Shown piece by piece: positions 6,569-64,000 of a DNA stretch of 64,000 nucleotides. A program made the translations under genes and the position numbers. Origin of the DNA: Polyangiales bacterium (lineage in GTDB: Bacteria; Myxococcota_A; Polyangia; Polyangiales; Polyangiaceae). The DNA lies in contig JBBRLQ010000026.1 of assembly GCA_038231275.1 (NCBI GenBank), positions 32,001-96,000 of the forward strand, read 5' to 3'. A model generated the notes under the pieces. It had not been told where the DNA came from, did no database searches, and saw only the letters and a program-made list of their open reading frames with translations. How positions within the stretch are numbered: position 1 is the first letter of the stretch; every line of letters starts with the position of its first letter.

Positions 6569-6594
6569 GGTAGCGAAAGACGGACCTCCTCGCG

Positions 6595-18291: not shown

Positions 18292-18311
18292 CGCGGTCCT
18301 TCGCCTCGCCT

Positions 18312-18730
18312 CTACGCCCGTCGCTGCGCGAGGTAGGCGGTCACGCCGCCGAAGATGTGGATCAAGATCTTGATCCCTTGCAGCACCACGAAGAGCCCCC
18401 CACCGGATCCGATTTGGATGACCGCCGAGATGGCTCCGATGCCGTGGAGCCACATGATCCGGCGCGCCGCGGCGGGGTCGCCTTTGAAGATCTGAACCCC
18501 TCGCACGGCGTAGAGGACGATGAGCAGATCGGGAGGATCGTCTGGAACCCCGACACCGATCCGTGAGCGGCGCCGAGCCCGATGAGCAGCGTGAGTCCCG
18601 CCCAGTATGCGCTCGCGAGGCCGGCGCCGACCGCGGCGAGCACGAACATCGTACGATCGGGCGGCGGTCCGCCGGGCGCATACGGAAGCGGGCCTTGTGC
18701 GTTCGGGGGCTGGTAAGGGTTCGGGTTCAT
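18312..18730 (-). pseudogene. Frameshifted small membrane protein (pseudogene or sequencing error)
   Basis: Upstream frame (...FQTILP) continues in another frame as LLIVLYAVRGVQIFKG.... One missing base near 18527 would restore a 139-aa multi-TM protein. Confidence 0.75.
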
Positions 18731-33570: not shown

Positions 33571-34551
33571 ATGTTCTCTCGCGACGTCCTCGAGATCGAT
33601 CGCGAGGCTGTGACGCGCGAGATCGCCGAGACCGTGCGCGCCCAGGTGCTCGGAACGCTCAAGCGTCGGGGCGCGATCGTCGGCCTCTCGGGCGGGATCG
33701 ACAGCTCGGTCGTCGCGGCGCTGGCGGTGCGGGCGCTCGGAAAAGAGAAGGTGCTCGGTGTCTTCATGCCCGAGCGCGATTCGTCGGGCGACTCGCTGCG
33801 CCTGGGGAGGCTCCTCGCGGAGTCGCTCGGCATCGAGACCGTGCTCGAGGACATCGCGGGCACCGTGGAGGCCGCCGGCTGCTACCGCCGCCAGGACGAC
33901 GCCGTCCGCACCGTGTTCCCGGAGTACGGGCCCGGGTACAAGTGCAAGATCACCCTGCCGTCGATCCTCGAGAGCGAGCGGCTCAACGTCTTTCAGCTCA
34001 CGATCCAGTCGCCGTCCGGCGAGACGAAGACGAGCCGCATGGGGCTCGCGGCATTCCTGCTGCTCGTGGCGGCGACCAACCTCAAGCAGCGCGCGCGGAA
34101 GATGATGGAATACTTCCACGCCGATCGGCTGAACTACGCCGTCGCCGGCACGCCGAACCGGCTCGAGTACGACCAGGGCTTCTTCGTGAAGCAAGGAGAC
34201 GGCGCCGCGGATTTCAAGCCGATCGCGCACCTCTACAAGACGCAGGTGTACGCGCTCGCCGCGCACCTCCATGTCCCCGCGGAAATTTGCGAGAGGCCGC
34301 CCACGACCGACACGTACTCGATGCCGCAGACCCAGGAGGAGTTCTACTTCGCGCTCCCCTACGACAAGATGGACCTGTGCCTGTACGGCAAGAACCACGG
34401 CGTCCCGGCAGCGGAGGTCGCGCCGATCGTCGGCGTCACCGCGGAGCAGGTCGAGCGCGTCTACAAGGACATCGACAAGAAGCGGATGACGACGCGCTAC
34501 CTCCACGCGCGCCCGCTCCTCGTCCACGACGTGCTCGAGATCGCGAAGTAG
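33571..34551 (+). CDS. nadE: NadE-like NH3-dependent NAD(+) synthase family protein
   Basis: GLSGGIDSS, NLKQRARK, GTPNRLE, GFFVKQGDG, LYKTQV. Confidence 0.88.
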   Translation: MFSRDVLEIDREAVTREIAETVRAQVLGTLKRRGAIVGLSGGIDSSVVAALAVRALGKEKVLGVFMPERDSSGDSLRLGRLLAESLGIETVLEDIAGTVEAAGCYRRQDDAVRTVFPEYGPGYKCKITLPSILESERLNVFQLTIQSPSGETKTSRMGLAAFLLLVAATNLKQRARKMMEYFHADRLNYAVAGTPNRLEYDQGFFVKQGDGAADFKPIAHLYKTQVYALAAHLHVPAEICERPPTTDTYSMPQTQEEFYFALPYDKMDLCLYGKNHGVPAAEVAPIVGVTAEQVERVYKDIDKKRMTTRYLHARPLLVHDVLEIAK

Positions 34552-34552
34552 A

Positions 34553-36541: not shown

Positions 36542-38091
36542 ACGGCGTTCCCCAGCTCCACGACTACCTCTCCGACTCCGCGCGGCGCCTGCCGGAGAAG
36601 ATTGCGCTCGTCTGTCGCAAGCAGCGCTTCTCGTACCGCGAGCTCGATCGGCGCGCGAACCGTCTCGCCCACGCGCTTCAACGGCGCGGAGTCTCGCGCG
36701 GCGATCGGATCGTCGTCTTCGCGGACAACACGGTAGAGACCGTGATCGCGTTCTGGGCGATCTTGAAGGCGAACGCCGTCGTCTCGATCGTCAACCCCCT
36801 CACCAAGGCCGACAAGCTCGCCTACCTCTTGAACGACTGCCGCGCGGTGGCGCTCGTCACCGACGGGCACCTCACGCCGGTCTTCGCCGACGCCGCGACG
36901 AAGTCTCGGCACCTCCGCCACGTCATCATTTCCGGGGCGATCGACGCGGCGCGCACAGCGAGCCTGCCCGGGGTGGTCGCGTGGGACGTGGCCCTCGAGG
37001 ATGGAGATCCCGCCGCGCCGCCGCCCCGGAAGAACATCGACATCGACCTCGCCGCCATCATCTACACCTCGGGGAGCACCGGCGATCCGAAGGGCGTCAT
37101 GCTCACCCACCGGAACATGCTCACCGCGGCGCGCTCGATCACGACGTACCTCGAGAACGTCGAGGACGACGTGATCCTCGGCGTCCTCCCCCTCGCCTTC
37201 GATTACGGCCTCTACCAGATGATCATGGCGTTCCGCGTCGGCGCCCGCCTCGTGCTCGAGCGCTCGTTCACCTACCCGGCCCAGGTGCTCGAGGTGGTGG
37301 TCAGCGAGAAGGTCACCGGCTTCCCCGGCGTGCCGACCATCTTCGCCATCCTCGCGGAGATGAAGACGCTCAAATCCCATGATTTTTCGAGCATCCGCTA
37401 CGCGACGAACACCGCCGCGGCGTTGCCGGTCAAGCACATCACCGTCCTGCAAGACATCTTCCCGGGCGCGAAGATCTTCAGCATGTACGGCCTCACCGAG
37501 TGCAAGCGCTGCACGTACCTCCCGCCCGCCGATCTCGCGCGCAAGCCGACCAGCGTAGGCGTCGCCATCCCGAACACCGAGCTCTGGATCGTCGACGAGA
37601 ACGGCGCAAAGGTCGGTCCCAACGTCGTCGGCCAGCTCGTCATCCGCGGCGCGACCGTCATGAAGGGCTACTGGGAGAAGCCCGAGGAGACGGCGAAGAA
37701 GCTGCGGCCCGGTCCAGTGCCCGGCGAACAGGTCCTCTACACCGGCGATCTCTGCAAGCTCGACGACGAGGGCTACCTCACCTTCGTCGGGCGCATGGAC
37801 GACATCATCAAGAGCCGCGGCGAGAAGGTGGCGCCGAAGGAGGTCGAGACCGCGCTCATGAACGTCGTCGGCGTGAAAGAGGCGGCGGTCATCGGCGTGC
37901 CCGACGAGATCCTCGGCCAGGCGATCAAAGCGTTCGTGGTCCTAGAAGAGGGCGCGACGCTGACCGAGAAGGATCTCCAGAAGGAGTGCCAGAGGCGCCT
38001 CGAGAATTTCATGGTGCCCAAGCACTTCGCGTTCGTCGCCGAGCTTCCGAAGACGACGACCGGCAAGATCAAGAAGACGGGGCTCGCGTGA
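36538..38091 (+). CDS. AMP-dependent ligase (class I adenylate-forming)
   Basis: YTSGSTGDPKG, YGLTEC, TGD, PKTTTGKI; ATGA overlap with asnB. Confidence 0.93.
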   Translation: MNGVPQLHDYLSDSARRLPEKIALVCRKQRFSYRELDRRANRLAHALQRRGVSRGDRIVVFADNTVETVIAFWAILKANAVVSIVNPLTKADKLAYLLNDCRAVALVTDGHLTPVFADAATKSRHLRHVIISGAIDAARTASLPGVVAWDVALEDGDPAAPPPRKNIDIDLAAIIYTSGSTGDPKGVMLTHRNMLTAARSITTYLENVEDDVILGVLPLAFDYGLYQMIMAFRVGARLVLERSFTYPAQVLEVVVSEKVTGFPGVPTIFAILAEMKTLKSHDFSSIRYATNTAAALPVKHITVLQDIFPGAKIFSMYGLTECKRCTYLPPADLARKPTSVGVAIPNTELWIVDENGAKVGPNVVGQLVIRGATVMKGYWEKPEETAKKLRPGPVPGEQVLYTGDLCKLDDEGYLTFVGRMDDIIKSRGEKVAPKEVETALMNVVGVKEAAVIGVPDEILGQAIKAFVVLEEGATLTEKDLQKECQRRLENFMVPKHFAFVAELPKTTTGKIKKTGLA

Positions 38092-38768
38092 GCGAGGACG
38101 AGCGCGTTCGTCGCGCGTACGCCGAGGGGCGCGTTCGGTTCTTGGATCTCGATCTGGAGATCGCGCCGGGCGCGCTCGTCCCTCGTCGAGAGACGGAGCT
38201 CCTCGCGCGCACGGCGATCGGTCTCCTCGCGGCCCTGCCAGGCGACCTTCGCGTGGTGGACATGTGCTGCGGCTCCGGAAACCTCGCGTGCGCCATCGCG
38301 TCCTTCATCCCGCAATCGCACGTGTGGGCGAGCGATCTGACGGACGGTTGCGTGGCGGTCACGAGGAGGAACGTCGCGCGCCTGGACCTCGGCGCGCGGG
38401 TGACGGTCACGCAAGGCGATCTGTTCGCCGCCCTCGCCGGCTCGGGCCTCGAGGCTGCGGTCGACGTCGTCGTCTGCAACCCGCCGTACATCTCGACCGG
38501 CCGCCTCGAGAAGGAGCGCAAGGAACTGCTCGATCACGAGCCGCGCGAAGCGTTCGACGGGGGCCCCTACGGCCTCACGATTCACCAGCGCGTCGTCCGA
38601 GAGGCGCCCCCGTTCCTGCGCGCGGGGGGGTCGCTCCTCTTCGAGATCGGGCTTGGGCAGGAGCGTCAGGTCGACGTCCTCTTTCGTCGCGCGACCTCGT
38701 ACACTGCCACCGTGCACGAAAAGGACGCCGACGGTCACGTGCGCGTCGTGATGGCAAAGAAGGTCTGA
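38088..38768 (+). CDS. HemK/PrmC-like methyltransferase lacking the N-terminal domain
   Basis: LVPRRETE, DMCCGSG, NPPY, HEP..A..GG..GL, FEIG..Q; 226 aa; GTGA overlap. Confidence 0.88.
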   Translation: MSEDERVRRAYAEGRVRFLDLDLEIAPGALVPRRETELLARTAIGLLAALPGDLRVVDMCCGSGNLACAIASFIPQSHVWASDLTDGCVAVTRRNVARLDLGARVTVTQGDLFAALAGSGLEAAVDVVVCNPPYISTGRLEKERKELLDHEPREAFDGGPYGLTIHQRVVREAPPFLRAGGSLLFEIGLGQERQVDVLFRRATSYTATVHEKDADGHVRVVMAKKV

Positions 38769-38771
38769 CGA

Positions 38772-39014
38772 ATGGAAATCAAGGAGCAGGTCCGTCAGTT
38801 CATCGTCAGCAACTTCTACGTCGCGGACCCCGTTGCGGTCGGAGACGAGACGTCGCTCCTCGACCAGGGCATCATCGACTCGACCGGCGTCCTCGAGGTC
38901 ATCAGCTTCCTCGAGTCGACGTTCGGCATCGTGGTCGCCGACGAGGAGATGCTCCCCGACAACCTCGACACGATCGGGCGCATCGCCGCGTTCGTCGGCA
39001 AGAAAAGGGCATGA
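38772..39014 (+). CDS. Acyl carrier protein (carrier 1)
   Basis: 80 aa, acidic, GIIDSTG phosphopantetheine site. Confidence 0.93.
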   Translation: MEIKEQVRQFIVSNFYVADPVAVGDETSLLDQGIIDSTGVLEVISFLESTFGIVVADEEMLPDNLDTIGRIAAFVGKKRA

Positions 39015-39277
39015 GGACGACGGCGCGCGCGGGTTGATCCGCCGCCTGAGCCGTCGCGCCTGAACGCGCGGAGAAGGCTCGGAAAACCGACACGCCTCGA
39101 TGCGAGAGCTCCGCCTTGCACGGCGGCGGCCCGCGTGGCAGTACCCGCGCGCGCAAGAGCCAAAGTGGGGGTGCGTTGCGCGCCGGCGAGGGCGACGCCA
39201 TGGGGTCGTTTGTCCCGCCATTACTGAACGCATTTCTAGTACGCGGACCACGGCCGTTCGGTCGAAGAGCCCGGCGG

Positions 39278-39392
39278 TTCGAGGGCGGAAAAGACCGCGA
39301 AAAGACGGCCTCGAACGCCTGATTTACCGATAATTTCCGGCGCGTTGGCCCGGAGAAGAAAAGGCAACTTTTCGAGGGCGATTTTTATCGCC
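39278..39392. promoter_or_regulatory. Repeat-rich regulatory region upstream of the EPS priming transferase
   Basis: Tandem GAAAAGAC(C/G)GC at 39288-39309; TTCGAGGGCG at 39278 and 39371; inverted repeat GGCGAT-TTTT-ATCGCC at 39377-39392. Confidence 0.45.
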
Positions 39393-39516
39393 TGATTCAG
39401 CGTACTTAGGCCCAATGTGGACGACGCTCGCGAAATGTAGGTTGCACGGTGCGGGCGCGGCGCATACGAGGAACAGTCGCGGTTTCACTACCCCTCACTC
39501 TCTTCCGAGCACCACC

Positions 39517-40902
39517 ATGATCACCCCCCGATTGAACAACCTGGCGCCTGGTCTGACCTCGAAGGTCAACCTTGCGGCGGATTGTGCGGCGCTGGCGGTG
39601 GCGGGGGGGCTCGCGTGCGTGGGGTCCTGGTCGGAGCCGGCGCTGGTCGCTTCGGCGACGATCGTGGGCTGGGTCCTCGCGGCCCGCGTCCTTCGCCAGT
39701 ACGACATCTGGCACAAGCAGGGCGTCGTCGGCGAGCTCGCCCTCACGACCGTGATGGTCCTCGGGACGGTCATCGAGCTGTTCCTCCTGCGCCTCGTCCT
39801 TCCGGCGCACGTGATGCCGAACCTCTCGCTCGGCAAGTACGTCGACGTCGCGCTCCCAGCTCTCGTTCTGCTTCGCCTCTTCATGGTCGCCGTCCGCTCG
39901 GTGCGTGAGCAGGCAAAGCACGACGTCCTCGTCGTCGGCGCCGGCGCGCTGGGGCGCGTCACGGCGGAGGATCTCCTCGCCGATCGCGCGCAGCCGAAGC
40001 AGATCGTGGGGTTCCTCCGCTTCCGTGACGACGCGACGGTCCCGCGCATTCCCGGCCCGCTGCTCGGAGACGTGAGCGAGCTCGACTCGGTGCTCAAGAC
40101 GCACCCGGTGAGCGAGGTCTACATCGCCGGCAACATGGTCAAGAACGCCGAGACGATGCAGGCCGTCATCCGCGTCTGCGAGAAGTTCGGCGTGCCGTTC
40201 GCGCTGCCTGCGGCGGGCTTCCGCTTCGGCCGCGCCCGCGCCGTCAACGCCAAGGCCATCCAGGATGGCTACATCCACTACCAGGCGTTCGAGGCGAAGC
40301 CGGTGCAGGTCGCCCTCAAGCGCGCCTTCGACGTCGCGCTCTCGGCGATCGCGCTCTGGCTCCTCTCGCCCGTTCTGATCGCCACCGCGATCGCCGTCAA
40401 GCTCTCGTCGAAGGGGCCCGTCCTCTTCAAGCAGCCGCGCGTCGGCATGCACGGTCGCCCGTTCAACATGCTGAAGTTCCGGTCGATGGTCGTGAACGCC
40501 GAGGCGCTCAAAGAGCAGCTGATGGCGCAGAACGAGCAGAGCGGCCCGGTCTTCAAGATGAAGTCGGATCCGCGCGTCACCGCCGTCGGCCGCTTCATCC
40601 GCAAGTACTCGATCGACGAGCTCCCGCAGCTGATCAACATCCTCCGCGGCGAGATGGCCATCGTCGGCCCGCGCCCGCCGGTCCCCAAGGAGGTCGCGCT
40701 GTACGAGCCGTGGCAGCGCCGCCGCCTCAGCGTCCGTCCGGGACTCACGTGCGTGTGGCAGGTCAGCGGCCGCAACGAGATCAGCTTCGAGCAGTGGATG
40801 TACTTGGACATGCAGTACATCGACAACTGGAGCCTCGGTCAGGACCTGGGCCTCATCCTGAAGACTGTGCCCGTCGTCCTGACCGGCCGCGGCGCTTCCT
40901 GA
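39517..40902 (+). CDS. Polyprenyl-phosphate hexose-1-phosphate transferase (WcaJ/EpsZ-like priming transferase)
   Basis: N-terminal TMs, VGAG domain, KRAFD, KFRSM, DPRVT.VG.FIRKYSIDELPQL, RPGLTCVWQV. Confidence 0.95.
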   Translation: MITPRLNNLAPGLTSKVNLAADCAALAVAGGLACVGSWSEPALVASATIVGWVLAARVLRQYDIWHKQGVVGELALTTVMVLGTVIELFLLRLVLPAHVMPNLSLGKYVDVALPALVLLRLFMVAVRSVREQAKHDVLVVGAGALGRVTAEDLLADRAQPKQIVGFLRFRDDATVPRIPGPLLGDVSELDSVLKTHPVSEVYIAGNMVKNAETMQAVIRVCEKFGVPFALPAAGFRFGRARAVNAKAIQDGYIHYQAFEAKPVQVALKRAFDVALSAIALWLLSPVLIATAIAVKLSSKGPVLFKQPRVGMHGRPFNMLKFRSMVVNAEALKEQLMAQNEQSGPVFKMKSDPRVTAVGRFIRKYSIDELPQLINILRGEMAIVGPRPPVPKEVALYEPWQRRRLSVRPGLTCVWQVSGRNEISFEQWMYLDMQYIDNWSLGQDLGLILKTVPVVLTGRGAS

Positions 40903-53854: not shown

Positions 53855-54840
53855 GCTCGCGCAAGTACTGCCTCATCACCCCGTGCCGCGACGAAGCGAA
53901 GTACGCGAGGCGCACGCTCGACTCCGTCACGGGCCAGACCGAGCCCCCTACCCTCTGGGTCATCGTCGACGACGGCTCCAAGGACGAGACACCCGCGATC
54001 CTCGCCGACTACGCCGCGCGCTTTCCGTTCATCCGCGTCGTGACGCGCGCCGATCGCGGCGCTCGGAAGGTCGGCGGCGGCGTCATCGACGCGTTTTACT
54101 CCGGGTGGGACACGATCACGCCGAGCGACTTCGACTACGTCTGCAAGCTGGACCTCGATCTGGATCTTCCGCCCGCCTACTTCGCCGGCCTCATGGACCG
54201 GATGGAGGCTGGACCGCGCATCGGCACCTGCTCGGGAAAGCCCTATTTTTTCCCTGAAAGCACCGCCGACGACGTCGTCACATTTCCACTGTCCGATCCC
54301 AGCTCGGTCGGCCTTGTCTCCGAGATGATTGGCGACGAGCACTCCGTCGGGATGACCAAGTTCTACCGAACGAGCTGCTTCGCGCAGATCGGCGGCTTCG
54401 TGCGCGAGGTGATGTGGGACGGCATCGACAGCCACCGCTGCCGCCAGCTCGGGTGGATCGCGGTGTCGTGGGACGATCCCGCGCTGCGCTTCGTGCATCT
54501 CAGGCCGATGGGGACGAGCCAGAAGAACTGGTGGACCGGCCGCGTTCGCCACGGCTTCGGGCAGTACTTCATGGGCACCGCGCCGGTGTACATGCTGGCG
54601 AGCGCGATCTACCGCATGACGCGGCCGCCGCTCGTCGTCGGCGGCATCGCGATGATGCACGGCTACCTGGACAGCATGGTCAAAGGGAAGCCGCGGTACG
54701 GGACGCCGGAGTTCCGGGCGTTCTTGCGGCGCTACCAGCTCGCGTGCCTCGTGAAGGGCAAGAAGCGCGCGACAGAGGAGCTCGACGCAGAGCAGGCCGC
54801 GCGCTGGCATCCGTCGCCAGAGGACGCGCCGCGCTCGTGA
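53851..54840 (+). CDS. Glycosyltransferase family 2
   Basis: ITPCRDE, VDDGSKD, KLDLD, MWDGID; ATGA overlap. Confidence 0.9.
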   Translation: MSSRKYCLITPCRDEAKYARRTLDSVTGQTEPPTLWVIVDDGSKDETPAILADYAARFPFIRVVTRADRGARKVGGGVIDAFYSGWDTITPSDFDYVCKLDLDLDLPPAYFAGLMDRMEAGPRIGTCSGKPYFFPESTADDVVTFPLSDPSSVGLVSEMIGDEHSVGMTKFYRTSCFAQIGGFVREVMWDGIDSHRCRQLGWIAVSWDDPALRFVHLRPMGTSQKNWWTGRVRHGFGQYFMGTAPVYMLASAIYRMTRPPLVVGGIAMMHGYLDSMVKGKPRYGTPEFRAFLRRYQLACLVKGKKRATEELDAEQAARWHPSPEDAPRS

Positions 54841-56618
54841 CGACGGGCCTCGCCATCCCCGTCGTCTTCGGGCCCGCGGGCCGCGCGATCTCGGGGTTTC
54901 ATCACCCGGCGCGCGCCGCGGATGGACGCACGCGCGCCATCGGTATCGTCTTGTGCAATCCGCTCGGGTACGACGCGATGTGCACGCACCGCACGTACCG
55001 TCACCTCGCCGAGCGCGCGGCCGAGCACGGATTTCAGACGCTGCGCTTCGACTACGAAGGGACCGGAGACTCCGCCGGTCGCCCGGACTCGCCCGATCGC
55101 GGGCGGGCGTGGCTCGACAGCGTCGCATTCGCGATCGACGAGTTGCGCGCGCGCTCAGGCGTCGAGAAGGTCGCGCTCTTCGGCGTACGGTTCGGCGCGA
55201 CCCTCGCGGCAACGGCGGCGGCGACGCGCGACGACGTGGACGCGCTGATCTTGTGGGCGCCGTGCGCGTCGGGGCGCGCGTACGTGCGCGAGCTCCGCGC
55301 GTTCCGGATGATCAAGGCGAAGGAAGCGCCGAAGGCGAGCGACGTGGGCGACGAGGAGGTGGCGGGCTACCTCTTCGACAAGGCGACCGTGGCGGACATG
55401 AGCGCGCTCGATCTCCTCGCTCGCCGTGAGCGGCCGGCGCGACGCGTGCTCGTCGTCCCGCGTGATCTGGCGTCGGCAGAGGCCCGCCTGGTCACGCACC
55501 TCGAGGCGGTGGGCGCCGCGGTGACCGTCGCGCGTGAGTCGGGGTACGCACTGATGATGCGCGATCCGCAGGACACGATCGTCCCCGTCGGCACGTTGGA
55601 CGGGATCGTCGAGTGGCTGGCGCACGGAGAGCCCTTGGATTCGCCGCACCCTCCCTCTCGAGACCATGCGCCTCCGCCCGTGCTCACCACGACCGCCGCG
55701 TCGGGCGCCGAGGTCCGCGAAGAGGCCGTGCAGTTCGGCGACGGCGACCGCCTGTTCGGCGTGGTCACCGAGCCCATCGCGCGCGAGTGCCTCGCGGGCG
55801 GCCCGACGATCTTGTTCTTGAACGTGGGCGCGAACCACCGCGTCGGGCCGAACCGCATGTACGTCTCGATGGCGCGTGACCTCGCCGCGCTCGGCTACCG
55901 CGGCATGCGCTTCGACGTGGCCGGCCTCGGCGACAGCCGCATCGCCCCCGGCGCGCCCGAGAACCGGCTCTATTCGAAGGACTCCGTCGTCGACGTGAAA
56001 GCGGCGATGGACTTTCTCGAGAAGACGCGCGGCGCGAGGCGCTTCGTCCTCCTCGGGTTGTGCTCGGGCGCGTACCTCGCCTTTCATACCGCCGTCGAGG
56101 ACCCTCGCGTCGTCGGTCAGGTGCTCTTGAACCCACAGACCTTCGAGTGGAAAGAGGGGGACTCGCTCGAGCTCTCGATGCGAAAGAGCTTCCTCTCGAC
56201 CCGCTACTACGCGCGCGCGCTCTTGGAGCCGGCGATGTGGAAGCGGCTCGTACGCGGGCGAGTCAACGTGCGCGGCGTCATGGGTGCCCTGCGCGAGCGA
56301 ATGGCGACGCAGGCGCGCGCCCGCGCGGAGGCGCTACGTGCACGGCTCACCGGCCAGCGCGAGCCGCAGACCGACATCGAGCGCGCGTTCGTCGCCATCT
56401 CCGATCGCGGCGTCGCTTCGCTGCTGGTCTTCAGCTTCGATGACGGGGGCCTCGACATGATCGAGCAGCACCTCGGCCGGAACGTCCGCAAGATGGCCCG
56501 GCGAAAGAACTTCCATTTCGAAATCGTGGACGGCGCCGACCACACTTTCACCCCCATCCACTCGCAGCACACGCTGCACGGGATCGTCACCCGCTACGTG
56601 ACGGCCAGCTTCGGCTGA
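54837..56618 (+). CDS. Tandem double alpha/beta-hydrolase-fold protein
   Basis: Domain 1: RFDYEGTGDS, GVRFG. Domain 2: RFDVAGLGDS, GLCSG, ADHTF. GTGA overlap. Confidence 0.88.
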   Translation: MTTGLAIPVVFGPAGRAISGFHHPARAADGRTRAIGIVLCNPLGYDAMCTHRTYRHLAERAAEHGFQTLRFDYEGTGDSAGRPDSPDRGRAWLDSVAFAIDELRARSGVEKVALFGVRFGATLAATAAATRDDVDALILWAPCASGRAYVRELRAFRMIKAKEAPKASDVGDEEVAGYLFDKATVADMSALDLLARRERPARRVLVVPRDLASAEARLVTHLEAVGAAVTVARESGYALMMRDPQDTIVPVGTLDGIVEWLAHGEPLDSPHPPSRDHAPPPVLTTTAASGAEVREEAVQFGDGDRLFGVVTEPIARECLAGGPTILFLNVGANHRVGPNRMYVSMARDLAALGYRGMRFDVAGLGDSRIAPGAPENRLYSKDSVVDVKAAMDFLEKTRGARRFVLLGLCSGAYLAFHTAVEDPRVVGQVLLNPQTFEWKEGDSLELSMRKSFLSTRYYARALLEPAMWKRLVRGRVNVRGVMGALRERMATQARARAEALRARLTGQREPQTDIERAFVAISDRGVASLLVFSFDDGGLDMIEQHLGRNVRKMARRKNFHFEIVDGADHTFTPIHSQHTLHGIVTRYVTASFG

Positions 56619-56626
56619 TTTTCTTC

Positions 56627-59161
56627 TTACGTCTTCGCGACGACGATCTTCGTCGGCGAGGCTGCGTTCAGAGGGACGACGCGGCCGGGAGACGCGTCGG
56701 TGCGGAGGCCGTGCAGCGTGACGGTGCGCTCGCCGCCCGGCTCGACGTGGAAGAACTCGTCGTCGGCGACGAATCCGCGCGCGTCGAAGGCGACGGCGAG
56801 CGCGAGCCTCTTGGCGCGCACGGTGACACGCCACGTCTCCGCGGGTCCCGGCGTCGCCACCGCCTCGACGCCGAGGTCTGCCGCCCGCGCGTGCGGGGTG
56901 CCGCACGGGAAATGGAACGCGCGCCCGATGCACGCCCCGTCCTTCCGATCGACGAGGGTGCCGACGACGAGATCGTGTCCTGGCGGACCGAAGCGGTACG
57001 CGTAGGTCGTGTCGACGAAGCGCCCGAGGACGGAGTCGGCAGAGATGGCGGTCACGCCGCGCGCCGGGACGGCCACCGGCGCGGCGCCTTCGACGACGCG
57101 TACATCGCCCCGGTAGAGCGTGACGCGCACCTCCGTGTCGAGCGCCACGGGGCCGTCGTTGACGGCGTGGAACGTGAGGCCGTTGAGGCCTTCGTCGGTC
57201 GCGAGGAGGGCCACCGGCGCGAACGCACGCGCGAGGTAGTGGTACGCCGCCTTGGGACGCCCGTTCGCGTCGACGACGCCCCACCCCGCCCCCGCCCAAA
57301 GGTCACGGAGGAGCCAGACCAGCGCACCTTTGCACTCCGAGCCCGCGCGTCGAAACTCCGAGATCGTCGCGAGCATCGCCTCGCCGGTGACGACGCGCCC
57401 GAGCTCGAGGTAGCGCGCGACGTCGGCGGCCCGAAGCAGCGCCGGATCGACGCCGAAGAGTCGGCCGAGGTAGTGATCGCGAACGTCCTCGAAATCCCAC
57501 GAGGCGCCGCGATCGCGCGGGACGCGGGCCTTCCATCGCGGGTGGTTCGGAGGAGACTCACCGTCGCGGAGGAGGCCCTCGATCGTCTCGTCGCACGGGA
57601 CGTTCGCGAACGCGAGGCACTCGGCGGTGAAGCGCACGCGAGATCGTCGCGCGTCTTCGAGCGGCCGCAAGTACGCGCCGACGCCGTAGTAATGCGACAC
57701 CCCCTCGTCGACGCGGAACGGCAGCGCCCCGCCCTCCGGTGTGCTCGCCACGTAGGGAACGTCGGGACGCGCCGCGCGCGCGACGGCCGGCAAGAGCTCG
57801 TCGAAGAGCGGACCGGACCACTCCTTCTCCGGCAGGCCGAGCATCGCGGCCTGCTGCGCGACCTCGCTGTTTCCGCAAAAAATTGCCAGGCTGGGCGAGA
57901 GCTGGAGCCGGCTCGCGAGCTGCGTCGCCTCGGCGCGAACGGACGCAGCGAACGCCTCGTCGGCGATCGGGTAGTCCATGTTGGCGAACATGAAGTCCTG
58001 CCACACCATGATGCCGAGCTCGTCGCAGAGATCGTGGAAGGTCTCGGGCGCGTAGCCCATCGTGCCGCCGACGCGGAGCATGTTCATCCCTGCGCGCGCG
58101 GCCATCGTGAGCGCGGCGCGCAGATCCTGGAGATCGTCGCCGTCGGTGATCCCGACGAGGTCGAGCGGCGTCCAGACGGCCCCTCGCGCGAAGACGTCCA
58201 CCCCGTTGACGCGAACGCCGAAGCCGCCGCCCTCGCGATCGAGCGTGATCGTACGAAAGCCGGTCCTGCCGAGGTCCATCTTCACGTCGCCGCGATCGGT
58301 GTGGGCGACGACGACGACGTCGTGGAGCGTCGGCGCACCGTGGGTCGCCGGCCACCAGAGCGCGACGTCGGGGATCGTGAGCGTGCCGCGCGCGACGACG
58401 GCGCCGTCCGCCTGCGATTCGGTGACCAGCTCCGTGACCGCGGCCCCGACGGCGAGCGATACGCTGCGAATGAGCGCGGGTCCGACGGTCGCGAGACGGA
58501 GCGCGATGTCCAAGGCGCCGTCGCGACCCTCTACGCGCGTCCTCGCGTCGGCAGAGAGCACGCATACACGCCCGCGCCGCTCGACGGCGATCGCGCGGTA
58601 GGGCCCGACCGGCGCGACCGGCGGCGACCACGCCGGGATGCGCCCGAGGAGCGCCGTTCGAATCCAGCGAAGCTGCTGCTGCGCCACGATCTGCGCGCGC
58701 CACCGCGGCCGCGGGCGGCGCTTCTTCAGCTCCTCGGTGATCGACGCGAACCGCAGGACGAGCTCGCCCGGGCCGCCGTGGCCAGTCACGTCGACGTCGT
58801 GCGCGAGGAACATGTTGTCGGAGCGAAGGACGTGCGCGCCGTCGAGCCACACGTCCGCGAGCGTCGCGAGGCCGTCGAAGCGGAGGATCACCTTCTCGTC
58901 GGCCTCGCGCGGCGTGAGGTCGACCTTCGCGCGAAACCACCAGTCGCTCTCGTCGAAGTCGCGCCCGTCGTCGAGGCTCCACGCCTTCGCGGCCGCGAGC
59001 GCGCTCGCCGCGGTGCCCGGCACTCGCGCGTCGAACCAGCGCGCGCTCGCGGCCTCGAGCCCCGCCGGATCGCTCACGGAGCCCGCCGCAAGCGCGGCGC
59101 ACGACCATCCGCCCGAAAGCGTGGTCACCAGGGTCCCGTCGATCGCGCGGACCTTGGCCAT
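56627..59161 (-). CDS. Glycoside hydrolase family 2 (beta-mannosidase-like), no signal peptide
   Basis: FDGLAT, SDNMF, WWP..HG, NMLRVGG, CDELGIMVWQDFMFAN, CGNSE, RFTAEC. Confidence 0.9.
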   Translation of the reverse strand: MAKVRAIDGTLVTTLSGGWSCAALAAGSVSDPAGLEAASARWFDARVPGTAASALAAAKAWSLDDGRDFDESDWWFRAKVDLTPREADEKVILRFDGLATLADVWLDGAHVLRSDNMFLAHDVDVTGHGGPGELVLRFASITEELKKRRPRPRWRAQIVAQQQLRWIRTALLGRIPAWSPPVAPVGPYRAIAVERRGRVCVLSADARTRVEGRDGALDIALRLATVGPALIRSVSLAVGAAVTELVTESQADGAVVARGTLTIPDVALWWPATHGAPTLHDVVVVAHTDRGDVKMDLGRTGFRTITLDREGGGFGVRVNGVDVFARGAVWTPLDLVGITDGDDLQDLRAALTMAARAGMNMLRVGGTMGYAPETFHDLCDELGIMVWQDFMFANMDYPIADEAFAASVRAEATQLASRLQLSPSLAIFCGNSEVAQQAAMLGLPEKEWSGPLFDELLPAVARAARPDVPYVASTPEGGALPFRVDEGVSHYYGVGAYLRPLEDARRSRVRFTAECLAFANVPCDETIEGLLRDGESPPNHPRWKARVPRDRGASWDFEDVRDHYLGRLFGVDPALLRAADVARYLELGRVVTGEAMLATISEFRRAGSECKGALVWLLRDLWAGAGWGVVDANGRPKAAYHYLARAFAPVALLATDEGLNGLTFHAVNDGPVALDTEVRVTLYRGDVRVVEGAAPVAVPARGVTAISADSVLGRFVDTTYAYRFGPPGHDLVVGTLVDRKDGACIGRAFHFPCGTPHARAADLGVEAVATPGPAETWRVTVRAKRLALAVAFDARGFVADDEFFHVEPGGERTVTLHGLRTDASPGRVVPLNAASPTKIVVAKT

Positions 59162-60144
59162 CAGACCTGGTAGCGCCGGGCGAGCGCCGAGACGCCAACC
59201 TCCCACGCGCGCTCGAGGTCCGACAGCATCGGCCCCAGATCGACGACCTTCTTCGCGCCGACCGCGCGCGCGGTCTTCAAGATGAGCGATTTACTCGTGT
59301 CGGAGATCGCCATGAACGCCTTCGCGCTCTCCTCCAGGCCGCCCTCACCGCGCTCGCCGAGCCACCGCAGGTAGAGCGCCGCGAGCTCGAACGCAGAGCC
59401 GAGCTGCCGGATCGTGGCGAACGCGTACACGTGGTACGCGCCGAGCCCCTCCCCCTTGAGCCGCTCGACGTCCTCCTTGAACCGCGCTGAGAAGCGCGCG
59501 AGCGGGTTGTCGTCGGGCCGACGCGCGAGGTGCTTTTGCAAGAGCTCCACCGAGCGGCGCGTAAGATCCGCCGGATCGCGAAGAACGACCCGCGCGGTGC
59601 GGACGAACTCCGCGAAGAACGGCATGAACGTCGGATCGGCCGGCGCGCCCAGTCGAAACAGGCTCACGAAGTCCTCGCCTGCGAGCGCGTGGTAGCTGCT
59701 GTTGTGGAAATACCCGAGCGTGCGCGCCTCGACGTCGATCTCCTGGATGCCGATCGTCGTCTTCGTGTGCTGCGTTCGGTAGTCGGTTCCCACGGTGTCG
59801 GGCAAATAGAACGCGTCGGCCTCCGCCAGGACGAGCTTGCCGCCGCGGAGCATCTCTTGCGCGTTGTCGATGAGCGGGCGGTAGACGTTGAGCTCTTGGA
59901 TGTCGAGGCCGTAGAGCGCCGTCAGGTCCTCGTGCGGCGGCTTGAAGAAAGTGAATTGATCGCCCTCCCAGTCGAGCCCCATCAAGAACCCGAGGCACGC
60001 GTGCGGATCGCAGCCGAGCGCGTGCAGGACCTCGATCCACACGTCGATGTAGCAGTTCGACTCGCCCCACGCGCGCGTCGGGCCGTGGAGCGCGTGCGGC
60101 ACGTATGCCTTCGCGTCGATCGACCGGAGCGCGGCGACCTTCAC
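59161..60144 (-). CDS. DUF1839 family protein
   Basis: WGESNCYIDVWIEVLH, DWEGDQFTFFK, DAFYLPDT, YAFATIRQLG; coupled to both neighbours. Confidence 0.85.
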   Translation of the reverse strand: MKVAALRSIDAKAYVPHALHGPTRAWGESNCYIDVWIEVLHALGCDPHACLGFLMGLDWEGDQFTFFKPPHEDLTALYGLDIQELNVYRPLIDNAQEMLRGGKLVLAEADAFYLPDTVGTDYRTQHTKTTIGIQEIDVEARTLGYFHNSSYHALAGEDFVSLFRLGAPADPTFMPFFAEFVRTARVVLRDPADLTRRSVELLQKHLARRPDDNPLARFSARFKEDVERLKGEGLGAYHVYAFATIRQLGSAFELAALYLRWLGERGEGGLEESAKAFMAISDTSKSLILKTARAVGAKKVVDLGPMLSDLERAWEVGVSALARRYQV

Positions 60145-61052
60145 GGCCAGAGCTTCTCCCGGACCGCCGCCGGCCACGTCTTCGGATCGAAACCGTGGTG
60201 CTTGAAGAGCGCCATGCACACGCGCTCCATCCCGAAGCCGAGGCACGCGGTGTTGGCGAGCTTGCCGTCGGCGGTCTTGATGTCGAAGATCTTGCCGAAG
60301 TGATCCTGGTGCCAGTTGAAGGAGCACACCGCGGTGGGCTTCTCTTCGGAGATGACGGGGATGGTGACCTCGAATTTGAGCTGCTGCTCGCGCTGCGTCG
60401 CCGCGAGCATGCGGCCGCCGCGGCCGAAGAACGGATCGTTCGCGACCTCCGGCTTCGCGGGGAGGCCGAGGGCGCGCATGATCGTGACGCCGCGCTCGAG
60501 CCACATGTCACGCCACGCGACGACCACCTCCGGCGCGCCGACCCGCACGAACTCGCGGACGCGGAAGGCCTGCATGCGCGTCGGCTCGGTCGACGGCTCG
60601 TTGCGGAAGACCCAGTTCTGCATGTCGACGAGTCGCCCCGCCGGGCCGAGCGTGCCTGTGAAGCTCGGATAGACGGGGTAGCAAGCGGCGGGCGTCAGCA
60701 CCACGTCGGTCATCGTCTGGAGCGCGCTCCACGACTCACCGGCGTGGACGCGCGACGCGAGCTCCGCGTGCTCCTTCTCTTTGCCGGCGAACGAGAAGAC
60801 CGTGCCGGCCAGCTGCGGGAACGAGTCCAGGAACTCGCTCTTTTCGAGCACCTTGCGATCTAGCGTCGGCGGAAAGAGCATCTGCTCGGCGCCGTCGTCC
60901 TTCGCGACGCGCGAGACGTAGTCGTCGAAGTGACGGAGCACGTCCTCGAAGACGGCGTTTCGCCCGAAAATTCCCGGCACGCCGACCGGGATGATGAGCC
61001 CCGACTGGACCAGCCCGTCGTAGAGCTCCTGCGAGGAGTACGTCACGCCCAT
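60141..61052 (-). CDS. Amino acid:[carrier protein] ligase (truncated atypical SerRS homolog)
   Basis: 303 aa with no tRNA-binding domain; TPAACYP, FRNEP, F..RE, SFNWHQDHFG, TACLGFGMER. Confidence 0.93.
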   Translation of the reverse strand: MGVTYSSQELYDGLVQSGLIIPVGVPGIFGRNAVFEDVLRHFDDYVSRVAKDDGAEQMLFPPTLDRKVLEKSEFLDSFPQLAGTVFSFAGKEKEHAELASRVHAGESWSALQTMTDVVLTPAACYPVYPSFTGTLGPAGRLVDMQNWVFRNEPSTEPTRMQAFRVREFVRVGAPEVVVAWRDMWLERGVTIMRALGLPAKPEVANDPFFGRGGRMLAATQREQQLKFEVTIPVISEEKPTAVCSFNWHQDHFGKIFDIKTADGKLANTACLGFGMERVCMALFKHHGFDPKTWPAAVREKLWP

Positions 61053-61067
61053 GAAGGTTCGCCTCGT

Positions 61068-62246
61068 TCAGTCGTCCTTGAGGACGAGCAACATCGACGC
61101 GTTCGTCGACAGGATGCGATCGTTGCCCACCATGAGCGCCGCGGAGAGCGCGTCGCGGAGGTGACGGCCGACCGAGAATTTAGAGTCGTTCTTGTAGCCC
61201 ATGATTCCGCAAATCTGGAGCGCGTGGTGGACGATCTGCGACGCCATCTGCGACGACGAGACCTTCAGGTTGTTCATCTTCAGCGCAAAGGCGATCGACG
61301 ACAGACTCTTGGTGCCCTGCTCGTCGTCTTTCATGAGCGCCTCGCACTCGCTCGCCACGTCGTGCGCGTTGGTGCGCATCGACTGGAGCATGCTCGAGAC
61401 CTCGGCCAAGCGGAGCGCGCTGGGAGGGACGGTGCCGGGTTTGGCGCGCGCTTGCTGGCGCACGAACGCGCGCGCGCGCCGCACCGCGCCCATCGATATG
61501 CCGAGCCACACGTTCGACCACAAGACGTGGCTGAACGGCACCTGCGTCTCGCTCGCGACGTCGGAGAACGGCGTCGTGAAAATCTGACCATCCTCCCCCT
61601 TCGATTGGAGCATGAACGGCGGGCTGCAGGTGCCGCGCATGCCGAGCGTGTCCCAAACGCCTTTCTGGGTGAGCGTGACGTCCTTCTTCCTGACGAGGAC
61701 GAAGATCTGATCGTTCGGGGGCGAGTCGGGGCCCCGCCGCGCCTGGAAAAGGATGTCGTCGGCCTGCGCGCCGTAAGAAATCGTCGTGCAGTCCTTGTCG
61801 AGGGTGAAGCGCCCGGCGCCGTCGTGCGCCACCGCGCATTTGCTGGTGCGCATCTCTCCGCCGATGCCGGCCTCGCTCGTCGCCGAGGCGATCAGGATCT
61901 GCTCGCGGACCAGATCGCCGACGTACTTCTGGTAGTACGGCTGTCCCATCGCGTGGCGAAGGATGCTCGCCACCTGGATGTGGTGCATCGCGAAGACCAT
62001 CGCCGCGGACGCGCAGTGCTGGCCGAGCGCCTCGCACATCGCGGCGAGCTCGATCATCCCGCACCCGAGCCCGCCTTGCTCGCGCGGGACGAGCGCGCTC
62101 ATCATACGCGCCTTCTTGAGCGCCTCGATCGCTTCGGTCGGGAAGCGCGCGTCGCGATCGACGGCGTCGGCGGCGGGGCCCGCGATCTCCTCAGCGAGGC
62201 GCTGGACGATCTCGACCGACGACGAGCGGGTCTCCTGGGCTTGCAT
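61068..62246 (-). CDS. Acyl-CoA (acyl-ACP) dehydrogenase family protein
   Basis: VDRDARFP, VPREQGG.G, ATSE, LGMRGT, ALQICGIMGY, RHLRD. Confidence 0.92.
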   Translation of the reverse strand: MQAQETRSSSVEIVQRLAEEIAGPAADAVDRDARFPTEAIEALKKARMMSALVPREQGGLGCGMIELAAMCEALGQHCASAAMVFAMHHIQVASILRHAMGQPYYQKYVGDLVREQILIASATSEAGIGGEMRTSKCAVAHDGAGRFTLDKDCTTISYGAQADDILFQARRGPDSPPNDQIFVLVRKKDVTLTQKGVWDTLGMRGTCSPPFMLQSKGEDGQIFTTPFSDVASETQVPFSHVLWSNVWLGISMGAVRRARAFVRQQARAKPGTVPPSALRLAEVSSMLQSMRTNAHDVASECEALMKDDEQGTKSLSSIAFALKMNNLKVSSSQMASQIVHHALQICGIMGYKNDSKFSVGRHLRDALSAALMVGNDRILSTNASMLLVLKDD

Positions 62247-62270
62247 GATTCGTGCGTTCCCTGCTTCCGC

Positions 62271-62513
62271 TCAGCGGTCCTTGGTCAGCTCTTCGATCGC
62301 CGCCCGGATGGCGGCGACGCTCTCGAACACCCCGCGGCGCAGCATGCGATCGGGGAACTCCACGTCGAACGTCCCCTCGAGCGCGAGCATCACGTTGACG
62401 CTGGCGTGCGACGTCATCCCCGACTGGTAGAGATCGCCGTCGTCGGCGAGGGCGTCGACGTCGACCGCCAGGCGACCGTGCTCCTTCAGGATGGCGCGAA
62501 TCTGATCGTTCAT
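62271..62513 (-). CDS. Carrier protein 2 (likely cognate of the aa:CP ligase)
   Basis: 80 aa; DLYQSGMTSHASV Ser site; FDVEFPD. Confidence 0.92.
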   Translation of the reverse strand: MNDQIRAILKEHGRLAVDVDALADDGDLYQSGMTSHASVNVMLALEGTFDVEFPDRMLRRGVFESVAAIRAAIEELTKDR

Positions 62514-62950
62514 GGGCGATGGGCTCCGGGCTTGCGTGCGCGCGTAGAGAGGCGGCTCGTCGTGGAACGTTCACGCTCGCCCATGACGACGGCGATGGCG
62601 AGGTTCCCCTGGTGGCTGATGGACACTTCGAGAGACCGCGCGCCCGCACGCCGCGCCGCACGCTCCGCCGCGCCCGACAGCGCCACGCCACACGCGCCGT
62701 CGGCAGCCTTCGTCACCTCGATGGATCGAGGATCGACGCCGACGTCGCTCGCACGGAGGGCCTTGATCGTCGCCTCTTTCACGGCGAAGCGGCCCGCGAG
62801 GCGACGCGCCGTCTCGGGAGGCGCTGCCATCGCGTACGCGATTTCTGCCGGCGTGTAGATGCGGGAGAGGTACCGGTCCCCGAAGGTCCGCATCGCATCC
62901 TCGACCTCGCGTACGTCCACCAAGTCGGTTCCGAGCAAGACCCCTCGCAT
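62510..62950 (-). CDS. acpS: Holo-ACP synthase (AcpS-type PPTase)
   Basis: GTDLV, RFAVKEATIKAL, VSISH; ATGA overlap with the carrier gene. Confidence 0.92.
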   Translation of the reverse strand: MRGVLLGTDLVDVREVEDAMRTFGDRYLSRIYTPAEIAYAMAAPPETARRLAGRFAVKEATIKALRASDVGVDPRSIEVTKAADGACGVALSGAAERAARRAGARSLEVSISHQGNLAIAVVMGERERSTTSRLSTRARKPGAHRP

Positions 62951-62995
62951 GGTGCGTTCTCGAACACGATACCACGCTGCACCAACCTTGAGCCC

Positions 62996-63757
62996 TTACT
63001 TACGCGACGCGCCGCGCAGCAAAATCCACGCGAATTTCGGATCGCGCACCAGGTACCGGCGCCAGAGGCGACGCGGCTCTCGCCCGAGGCGGTAGGCCCA
63101 CTCGAGGCCGTTCTTCGACATCCACGCCGGCGCGCGCGGGATGGTTCCGGCGACGAAATCGATCGACGCACCGAGGCCGAGGAGCACCGCGGGCGCGAGC
63201 GCCTCCTTGGACTCGTGGATGAAGAGCTCCTGCTTCGGCGCGCCAAGGCCTACGACGACGATCTCCGGCGCGGCCCGCTTCACCGCCTCACGGATCGCGT
63301 CGCGACGTTCGAACGGCTCGCGCATGTCGACCCGCGGCGCGAGCGTGCCCACGATCGCGATGCCGGGGAGAGTCTTCTCGAGCTCCTGCTGCGCCCGCGC
63401 CGCGACCCCGTCTCCGCCCCCGAGGAGGAACACGCGCCATTTGCGCGACGCCGCACGACGGAGCAGCGGCATGACCAGATCGGATCCCGACACCTTCTCC
63501 GGCAACGGCCTGCCGAGGAGGCGCGACGCCCACAGCACCGGCATCCCATCGGCGACCGAGAGGCTGGCCGCCTCGTAGGCCGCGCGCATCGCCGGATTCT
63601 CGGAGTATTCGACGACGTGATCGACGTTGGGCGTGAAGACCGAGCCGCCTTTCTTCGCGACGACGAGCGCGTCGATCGCGTCGACGGTCTCCGCCAACGT
63701 GAGCGCGTCGATGGGAACGCCGCCGACGCGCACGCGCGAATGAAGGGCGGACACCAC
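62996..63757 (-). CDS. WecB/TagA/CpsF (GT26) glycosyltransferase
   Basis: TPNVDH, ADGMP, GSDL, GLGAPKQE, RAP.W...GLEW.YRL..EPRRL. Confidence 0.93.
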   Translation of the reverse strand: MVSALHSRVRVGGVPIDALTLAETVDAIDALVVAKKGGSVFTPNVDHVVEYSENPAMRAAYEAASLSVADGMPVLWASRLLGRPLPEKVSGSDLVMPLLRRAASRKWRVFLLGGGDGVAARAQQELEKTLPGIAIVGTLAPRVDMREPFERRDAIREAVKRAAPEIVVVGLGAPKQELFIHESKEALAPAVLLGLGASIDFVAGTIPRAPAWMSKNGLEWAYRLGREPRRLWRRYLVRDPKFAWILLRGASRK

Positions 63758-63763
63758 GGGCGG

Positions 63764-64000
63764 CTATTTCTCGAGAGGGCCCGCGATCGGTCGGGCCAGG
63801 CGCAGGTCCACGACCGTGATCGACCACGGCGGAAGGACCGTGTCGGTGGACGACGGCGCGGCATCCCCGCGCTCGGGGGCGACCGCGGTGAGCGTCCGTG
63901 CCCCCCGCGCGAGGACGTACGTGCTCATCGACGTGACCGCGCCGCACGTGTCGAGCCCGAGCTTCGCGAGCACCGCCTCGTCCGGGGACTGGTTGACCGC
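63764..64000 (-). CDS. C-terminal fragment, possibly the beta-sandwich tail of a glycoside hydrolase (5'-partial)
   Basis: Frame open to the window edge: AVNQSPDEAV...LPPWSITVVDL, resembling the C-terminal domains of GH44/GH51-type enzymes. Confidence 0.45.
   Translation of the reverse strand, partial: AVNQSPDEAVLAKLGLDTCGAVTSMSTYVLARGARTLTAVAPERGDAAPSSTDTVLPPWSITVVDLRLARPIAGPLEK

Follow-up and report, generated by a model that had tools for sequence, protein, structure and literature searches.

A 64,000-nt stretch of the genome of an uncultured Polyangiales bacterium (contig JBBRLQ010000026.1, positions 32,001 to 96,000; hereafter the window, with coordinates counted from its first base) carries near its end a cluster of genes around an amino acid:[carrier protein] ligase (aa:CP ligase). 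The host genome (G000) is metagenome-assembled and Polyangiaceae-like, 9.28 Mb in size, about 70% G+C and 94% complete, and the nearest relatives of the ligase carry a Polyangiaceae label. On the minus strand, in the direction of transcription, the genes encode a glycosyltransferase (GT) of the WecG/TagA/CpsF family (EpsA-like, 253 aa, 62996–63757; PF03808, TIGR00696), an AcpS-type phosphopantetheinyl transferase (PPTase) or holo-acyl carrier protein synthase (146 aa, 62510–62950; PF01648, TIGR00556), an acyl carrier protein (ACP; 80 aa, 62271–62513; NF005480, PF00550), a flavoenzyme of the acyl-CoA dehydrogenase (ACAD) fold (392 aa, 61068–62246; PF02771, PF00441), the aa:CP ligase (303 aa, 60141–61052; NF005479), a DUF1839 protein (327 aa, GTG start, 59161–60144; PF08893) and a beta-mannosidase-like glycoside hydrolase of family 2 (GH2; 844 aa, 56627–59161; PF22666). 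The initial annotation of this DNA had named these genes and their junctions, and both match to the base when the open reading frames (ORFs) and junctions are read directly: 45 bp separate the GT stop from the acpS ATG, acpS and the ACP gene overlap in ATGA, 24 bp lie between ACP and ACAD and 15 bp between ACAD and ligase, ligase and DUF1839 overlap in GTGA, and DUF1839 and GH2 meet in TGATG with a 1-base overlap. Convergent with the GH2 gene is a gene on the plus strand for a fused double alpha/beta hydrolase (593 aa, 54837–56618; TIGR03101, TIGR03100), whose start is most likely the GTG at 54837. Upstream of the GT, the co-directional string continues past the window, which holds the 3' end (63764–64000, minus strand) of an EpsB-like GH44 gene encoding 725 aa (PF12891, NF041873); a polysaccharide co-polymerase (PCP) gene is followed after 16 bp by a gene for a 198-aa protein of unknown function, which overlaps the GH44 gene in ATGA, and 6 bp separate the latter from the GT. 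At least ten co-directional genes thus stand in a string in which every gap is at most 45 bp.

At least 588 loci matched when the ligase alignment was scanned against species-representative genomes; the analysis covers the 80 best-scoring of them, which have ligase identities of 57–93% and come from Myxococcota, Undibacterium, Lysobacterales, Steroidobacteraceae, Burkholderiales and Methylococcales. Partner genes were counted by tblastn with the window proteins (E ≤1e-5, coverage ≥40%); many of the 80 loci are truncated, and 39 have full 10-kb flanks. Among these 39, the ACAD-fold gene was found in 39, ACP and DUF1839 in 38 each, GH2 and the double hydrolase in 36 each and AcpS in 28; all seven cassette genes occur together in 25, and the six other than AcpS in 34. 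Over all 80 loci the corresponding numbers are 76 for DUF1839, 75 for ACAD, 67 for ACP, 63 for GH2, 55 for the hydrolase and 50 for AcpS. The segment ACAD-ligase-DUF1839 keeps a constant order and spacing across related loci from three phyla-level groups, and the arrangement of the cassette is therefore not a matter of chance. All-against-all clustering of the flank ORFs gave no further family in more than 10 of the 80 loci. The conserved unit is a self-contained cassette of seven genes, namely AcpS, ACP, ACAD-fold enzyme, ligase, DUF1839, GH2 and double hydrolase; it is the co-occurrence counts that bring the convergent gene at 54837–56618 into the unit and leave the GT out. The genes listed in the initial annotation are all real, but the double hydrolase was missed there and the GT is no part of the cassette. 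Within the taxonomic family of the host the ligase is patchy, with scores above the cut-off in 14 of 81 genomes and in 0 of 14 control genomes. A separate observation concerns some Myxococcota relatives (a cluster of four loci), in which a gene for a class I S-adenosylmethionine-dependent methyltransferase lies inside the cassette (L004:14458-15273, in the nearest relative and after GH2; L005:11957-12763); the window is without it.

The biochemistry of the first steps is the best anchored. The ligase scores 421.4 bits against NF005479 (cut-off 357), with residues 7–302 covering positions 19–316 of the 318 in the profile, and matches Bll0957 in the PDB over residues 19–300 (3mey, E 8e-74; 4h2w, E 3e-75). 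On a methanogen-type seryl-tRNA synthetase (SerRS) model of 518 positions, the 303 aa align only to positions 236–505, and on PDB 3w3s to residues 305–508, and the protein is predicted to be a SerRS-like class II catalytic core devoid of the tRNA-binding domain. Across 27 sequences its residues C124, E152 and C270 do not vary, and they align to the corresponding residues of Bll0957; we take them to bind zinc. Two residues past the second Cys the protein has Gly272 in place of the Ala of Bll0957. For the ACP, NF005480 gives 108 bits (cut-off 72) and PF00550 27.3 bits, with a weak match to DltC (E 0.001), and the Ser35 of its G-M-T-S-H motif, kept in 68 of 68 aligned sequences, is the probable phosphopantetheine site. 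AcpS reaches 53.6 bits for PF01648 and 70.9 bits for TIGR00556 (cut-off 45.35). The earlier description of a SerRS-like aa:CP ligase is borne out: the enzyme is of the true Bll0957 type, with a cognate-type ACP and its own PPTase alongside, and homology as good as shows that a small amino acid would be loaded onto a dedicated carrier. Characterised relatives of the ligase prefer Gly or Ala. The 2010 study of aa:CP ligases (Mocibob) reportedly covered these amino-acid preferences and gave the original description of the gene neighbourhood, and the Agrobacterium enzyme is said to have been studied as well. The same genome holds a second ligase-like gene of about 400 aa (G000:C21:13673-14578; L002:1099-2301, plus strand), which scores between families, with 163 bits for NF005479 and 142 bits for the methanogen-type SerRS; paralogues akin to it occur in five other genomes of the family (G019, G046, G060, G070 and G071).

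DUF1839 matches PF08893 with 353.6 bits (gathering score 22.5), and searching its sequence against the PDB returned one chance match (E 0.59) and nothing relevant. A structural model from 29 sequences (predicted local distance difference test, pLDDT, 92.8) has a bipartite fold, with a papain-like N domain and a helical C domain. Compared by Foldseek and VIA-align, it matches CcbD, in a structure with its peptidyl carrier protein partner, with a Z of 18.7 (284 of 327 residues aligned, root-mean-square deviation 3.8), and CtaG and AziU3 with a Z of 17.6 each; the next unrelated fold follows at 8.2. CcbD and LmbD, as described in PMC12945683, form an amide between a prolyl group tethered to a carrier protein and the amine of the lincosamide thiooctose, in a ping-pong reaction through a Cys acyl-enzyme, and the account in PMC12865890 treats CtaG, BtrH and AsbE as papain-like ligases dependent on peptidyl carrier proteins. 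Across 29 DUF1839 sequences C31 and H147 never vary, and T or S occupies position 130; Thr130 is a candidate site residue, judged from how it is spaced in comparison with the CtaG triad C11/H128/D144. The protein lacks the canonical Cys-His-Asp/Glu triad and has C-(T/S)-H, with the His in third position. Because the canonical triad is absent, we file DUF1839 as working like CcbD, CtaG and BtrH and not as a member of their group. On the strength of the model it is probably a carrier-protein-dependent transacylase, and transfer to an amine is well supported by the fold. For the transfer to a sugar put forward in the initial annotation, the likeness to the carrier-dependent amide synthases CcbD, CtaG and AziU3 (Z 17–19) counts in favour of the transfer, but the sugar as acceptor is something that we infer.

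GH2 scores 84.3 bits against PF22666 and matches beta-mannosidases of the PDB (5n6u, 5e-56; 6byc, 4e-50). The catalytic residues mutated to Ala in PDB 6byi (in CGNNE) and 6byg (in FMSE) align to its E433 and E514. Among 50 cassette GH2s the first of these positions is Glu in 48 and the second in all 50; with both Glu (acid/base and nucleophile) kept, the enzyme is predicted to be catalytically intact. Residue 13 of GH2 aligns to residue 6 of the crystallised enzyme, leaving no room for a signal peptide, and the protein is therefore placed in the cytoplasm. The double hydrolase scores 105.6 bits for TIGR03101 (cut-off 202.75) and 138.5 for TIGR03100 (cut-off 168.45); with both under cut-off, it appears as a relative only of the exosortase A-associated hydrolases 1 and 2. 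Its N-terminal, hydr2_PEP-like domain has the nucleophile elbow G-x-R-x-G, with Arg in 30 of 31 sequences aligned to the Ser of PDB 9pir, and its C-terminal, hydr1_PEP-like domain has G-x-C-S-G, where the Cys (C409, counted from the GTG at 54837) is present in all 31 sequences and a D-H-T-F motif comes after the elbow. A likeness of the Cys domain to polymerising acyltransferases was considered and gained no support, as Foldseek with the model (pLDDT 85.2) gave only generic alpha/beta hydrolases of the esterase, lipase and PETase kinds and no match resembling polyhydroxyalkanoate synthase.

The surroundings of the cassette in this genome are those of exopolysaccharide (EPS) production. It lies mid-way in a Wzx/Wzy-type EPS locus of about 40 kb. 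On one flank are two AsnB-like amidotransferases, a TIGR03098-like AMP ligase with an 81-aa ACP, an EpsZ-like priming transferase, a hexapeptide transferase, an alpha/beta hydrolase, a GT2, Wzx, a DUF6492 protein, a short-chain dehydrogenase/reductase and a GT4, followed by the double hydrolase and the rest of the cassette; on the other are the GT, GH44, PCP, an EpsX-like protein, Wzy and an EpsY-like exporter of the outer-membrane polysaccharide export (OPX) type. The GH44 gene (L003:2768-4942) scores 233 bits for PF12891 and 812 for the EpsB model NF041873, whose cut-off is 1250, and since all Eps equivalog scores fall under their cut-offs, these genes are relatives and not orthologues by the NCBI standard. 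The nearest relative, L004, whose ligase is 93% identical, shares the EPS locus (PCP, 198-aa protein, EpsX-like export gene, AsnB, hydrolase and DUF6492), in its case without GH44.

To place this setting among other loci, 19 of the 39 full-flank loci were chosen, one or a few per taxon, and their 152 flank ORFs were scanned against Pfam for glycan-type families (GT, Wzx, Poly_export, Bac_transf, DegT, GDP-mannose dehydratase and AT3). At least one such family lies within 6.5 kb of the cassette in 11 of the 19, made up of 8 of 10 Myxococcota loci and 3 of 9 proteobacterial ones; tblastn adds L043 as a twelfth, on account of an AT3-like gene. GT4-like genes stand directly upstream of acpS in L034 and L053. 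A gene for an AT3-type (PF01757) membrane acyltransferase occurs in 12 of the 80 loci (L025, L029, L032, L033, L038, L039, L043, L050, L054, L055, L056 and L063), mostly abutting the hydrolase gene, and looks like an optional eighth member of the cassette; the AT3-like genes of the window's genome are on other contigs only. The case for a polysaccharide is built on the embedding in an EPS locus, the GT4-like genes of L034 and L053, the glycan-type flanks and the conserved GH2. In the Polyangiaceae relative L019, the cassette is flanked on both sides (2509–7272 and 18028–19158) by genes encoding a GDP-mannose 4,6-dehydratase, a sugar aminotransferase of the DegT type and a hexapeptide transferase; together they resemble a pathway to a 4-amino-6-deoxy sugar, which might be an amine acceptor.

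We propose that the seven-gene cassette acts in the cytoplasm, tethering a small amino acid to a carrier, modifying it and passing it to an amino sugar of the EPS, and we put this at about an even chance (probability near 0.5). By strong homology, AcpS would prime the dedicated ACP at Ser35, and the zinc-type SerRS-like ligase would activate a small amino acid (Gly or Ala in its relatives) and thioesterify it to the phosphopantetheine arm. The ACAD-fold flavoenzyme may then modify the tethered aminoacyl group. From its fold and conserved residues, DUF1839 would take the group on Cys31 and hand it to an amine, most likely that of an amino sugar by analogy with CcbD and BtrH. The acceptor sugar, on the cytoplasmic side, could be part of the lipid-linked repeat unit of the EPS or its nucleotide-sugar precursor, and GH2 and the Cys-nucleophile hydrolase may act on the same glycoconjugate, whether in trimming, in deprotection, in proofreading or in a second transfer. 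The conserved GH2 and the glycan context suggest a sugar as acceptor, and a sugar of this particular EPS is a reasonable inference.

Several observations weigh against this proposal. The comparison draws on the 80 best-scoring of at least 588 loci, a sample that holds none of the characterised systems from alpha-proteobacteria. No glycan gene is near 8 of the 19 annotated loci, and the flanks of the Undibacterium cassette resemble housekeeping genes; the cassette thus does not need a glycan pathway next to it. Among the scanned ORFs of the EPS locus, no de-N-acetylase or sugar aminotransferase that could lay bare a sugar amine was recognised. As for DUF1839, Pfam returned only PF08893 and no match to BtrH_N even at an E of 10, its site is described as papain-like with a non-canonical C(T/S)H arrangement in the account given in PMC10318531, and transfer, as opposed to hydrolysis, is putative.

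Among these points are also the residues of the flavoenzyme. The ACAD-fold protein matches the N- and C-terminal ACAD domains (PF02771, 51.1 bits; PF00441, 37.9 bits), and all NCBIfam equivalogs are far under cut-off. At the position of the catalytic Glu of the medium-chain (MCAD) type it has V373 (C-terminal motif L-M-V-G-N-D-R-I), and at that of the isovaleryl-CoA dehydrogenase (IVD) type it has R259, neither of them acidic; we presume the two positions to be those of the Y-E-G-T motif and of helix G. The family profile matches butyryl- and short-chain ACADs in the PDB with E 1e-21 and the sugar N-oxygenases DnmZ and KijD3 with 1e-19 and 5e-18, without separation. An ACAD oxidation, as the initial annotation had worded this step, is accordingly doubtful, and because a canonical base is missing and the profile is ambiguous, we do not call the reaction a dehydrogenation and speak of an ACAD-fold flavoenzyme only. 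From its residues, the step is probably not a classical alpha,beta-dehydrogenation; oxidation of the amine or C–N bond, or hydroxylation, is possible. Three of the 19 annotated loci have flavin reductase (PF01613) genes next to the cassette (L019:17470-17985, L027:17108-17770, L033:3655-4698). Such a neighbour would suit an ACAD-fold monooxygenase in need of reduced flavin; in the window's own genome, 94% complete, no PF01613 gene was found.

The last of these points is the link to the GT, on which the suggestion of a polysaccharide acceptor had originally been based. The GT scores 206.3 bits for PF03808 and 149.8 for TIGR00696 (cut-off 69), and 264 bits for the EpsA equivalog NF041872, short of its cut-off of 500; by these scores it is assigned to the WecG/TagA/CpsF family and not named EpsA. 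A WecG gene lies within 10 kb of the cassette in 7 of 80 loci, and in none of the 80 does one stand on the same strand directly upstream of acpS, so that among these loci the junction is unique to this genome. In the nearest relative, a Wzx-like gene on the opposite strand stands before acpS, between it and the GT. The GT neighbour is specific to this locus, and the adjacency bears little weight for a sugar acceptor; the polysaccharide acceptor itself has other evidence, as set out above, but the argument from the GT does not carry over.

The alternative that survives best would keep the chemistry and change the product: what the cassette makes would not decorate a polysaccharide but be an aminoacyl- or acyl-glycoside in soluble form, a specialised metabolite of small size or a modified lipid, and its position in the EPS locus would reflect chance insertion of an accessory cassette. 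Such an origin would fit a self-contained, mobile unit whose flanks vary by lineage and which is patchy in its family, and the loci that have no glycan genes nearby point the same way. At L027, an AMP-binding/thioesterase protein, a thiamine pyrophosphate (TPP) enzyme and a methyltransferase stand beside the cassette. Every cassette member is cytoplasmic, the structural relatives CcbD, CtaG and BtrH all belong to small-molecule pathways, and the supplement of PMC10318531 guesses at fatty-acid or phospholipid processing. A GH2 with its catalytic Glu that is near-constant across the loci nevertheless calls for a glycoside, the glycan genes near 11 of the 19 loci and the AT3 acyltransferases speak for a glycan, and the cassette holds its place in the same EPS locus here and in L004. 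We consider a product of this other kind somewhat unlikely.

Unlikely in turn is that the GT (with GH44 and PCP) and the cassette form separate transcription units, with a promoter for the cassette in the 45-bp spacer. That gap is the widest of the ten-gene string, the junction is not kept in other loci and is interrupted by the opposite-strand gene in L004, and a weak terminator-like hairpin (63048–63027, minus strand; 7 pairs followed by GATTTTG) lies in the last 50 coding bp of the GT, before the spacer. A scan of 54000–64000 nonetheless gave no sigma-70-like promoter (0 matches, 0.4 expected) and seven terminator-like sites against 3.7 expected (standard deviation 1.7), which is no clear enrichment, and the one at the junction is within coding sequence; 45 bp is also normal for a spacer inside an operon. 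The cassette is probably co-transcribed with the EPS operon. That the cassette instead breaks down or recycles a glycoconjugate bearing an aminoacyl group, in which case GH2 and the hydrolases would be its working enzymes, is very improbable: three of the seven members have hydrolase folds (GH2, alpha/beta hydrolase and papain-like protein), but an ATP-consuming ligase, a dedicated carrier and an own PPTase mark biosynthesis, and the N-terminal domain of the hydrolase is without a nucleophile.

Parts of the proposed aminoacylation of an EPS sugar have parallels in known systems. One is the Bradyrhizobium aa:CP ligase (Bll0957 and its carrier; PDB 3mey, 4h2s-4h2y), which shares the ligase family, the active-site Cys/Glu/Cys and an ACP two genes away; unlike that alpha-proteobacterial system, the one here belongs to a Polyangiaceae-like host and lies within an EPS operon. 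A 2022 review (PMC9437257), where it treats the aa:CP ligases, still describes their biological role as unknown. Ozhelvaci and Steczkiewicz, in supplement 3 of their 2023 JBC paper (PMC10318531), give the order GH2, DUF1839, aa:CP ligase, ACAD and ACP, and their main text suggests glycan processing. The order is the same as here; their description of that neighbourhood names neither AcpS nor the fused double hydrolase and draws no link to CcbD, CtaG or BtrH, and the taxa that it lists are proteobacteria and high-GC Gram-positives, without Myxococcota. With CcbD/LmbD (carriers CcbZ/LmbN), CtaG, BtrH and AsbE the cassette would have in common a carrier-thioester donor and a ping-pong route through Cys, and the acceptor of CcbD and BtrH is the amine of an amino sugar. 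DUF1839 differs from CcbD, CtaG and BtrH in sequence (11–15% identity, no Pfam relation) and in having C-(T/S)-H in place of Cys-His-Glu/Asp, its donor would be loaded by a ligase resembling an aminoacyl-tRNA synthetase whereas theirs is loaded by an adenylation domain, and those relatives make antibiotics and siderophores, not envelope polymers.

Similar logic is found in butirosin biosynthesis, where the side chain is built by the ACP BtrI, the ligase BtrJ, BtrK, the flavin monooxygenase BtrO/BtrV and the transferase BtrH, with deprotection by BtrG. An amino acid tethered to an ACP, modification by a flavoenzyme, papain-like transfer to a sugar amine and hydrolytic clean-up are common to both schemes, yet all enzyme families except the transferase fold differ, and the parallel is a lead. 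Dlt (DltA/DltC/DltB/DltD) and AlmEFG carry out carrier-mediated aminoacylation of envelope polymers and lipid A, likewise with an ATP-activated small amino acid, a dedicated small carrier and a glycoconjugate of the cell envelope as target; in contrast to the cassette, they use an adenylation-domain ligase and MBOAT or DltD/AlmG transferases and have no flavoenzyme, GH2 or papain-like enzyme.

The locus represents a genuine and intact addition to a known orphan system; its setting is informative, if uncultured. Its gene order was already published in 2023 (PMC10318531); new here are the negative outcome for the GT link, the catalytic states of GH2, the ACAD-fold enzyme and both hydrolase domains, the second ligase/ACP pair in the EPS locus, and the optional AT3, methyltransferase and flavin-reductase neighbours. 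It adds one of the tightest physical links between the cassette and a Wzx/Wzy EPS operon. Taken together, the full set of seven genes, the likeness of the DUF1839 fold to that of CcbD and the glycan genes that recur nearby lead to a testable proposal of carrier-mediated sugar aminoacylation, and the cassette is also present in cultured Undibacterium, Ramlibacter and Nevskia strains, where it could be examined. We tentatively offer a fuller version, on balance unlikely, for the purpose of aa:CP ligases: a glycyl or alanyl group modified by the flavoenzyme would be joined by the cassette, as an N-acyl group, to an amino sugar in the lipid-linked repeat unit of the EPS. A candidate acceptor would be a beta-linked, mannosamine-type residue added by a WecG-family GT, which would also suit a beta-mannosidase-like GH2, and the Cys-nucleophile hydrolase, with the AT3 acyltransferase in some lineages, might form a second branch, for transfer or for proofreading. 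If this is true, DUF1839 would be the first papain-like carrier-dependent transacylase to act on a cell-envelope polymer.

The EPS locus also holds a second carrier-protein set (34490–40902, plus strand), some 20 kb away from the cassette. It comprises an AsnB-like amidotransferase (TIGR03108, 444 bits, under cut-off), a TIGR03098-like AMP-forming ligase (36238–38091, plus strand; ligase_PEP_1, 492 bits against a cut-off of 592; PF00501, 326 bits), the second ACP (81 aa, 38769–39014, plus strand; weak matches to NF052616 and NF058660) and the EpsZ-like priming transferase. With this set present, one polysaccharide locus holds two different ligase/ACP pairs. The XrtA/PEP-CTERM set of the TIGR03098 ligase, an ACP, the TIGR03099 decarboxylase and the TIGR03100 and TIGR03101 hydrolases travels together, and XrtA/PEP-CTERM-associated families are the nearest for several proteins of the locus (hydr1, hydr2, ligase_PEP_1, amidotransferase and stp1 GT). 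The double hydrolase is related to hydr2_PEP and hydr1_PEP, and the TIGR03098-like ligase, ACP and amidotransferase add to the likeness; the locus differs from that set in that its scores are under the cut-offs, its hydrolases are fused and have Arg and Cys elbows, and no exosortase (PF09721) was found in the 94%-complete genome. The double hydrolase could serve either of the two ligase/ACP pairs.

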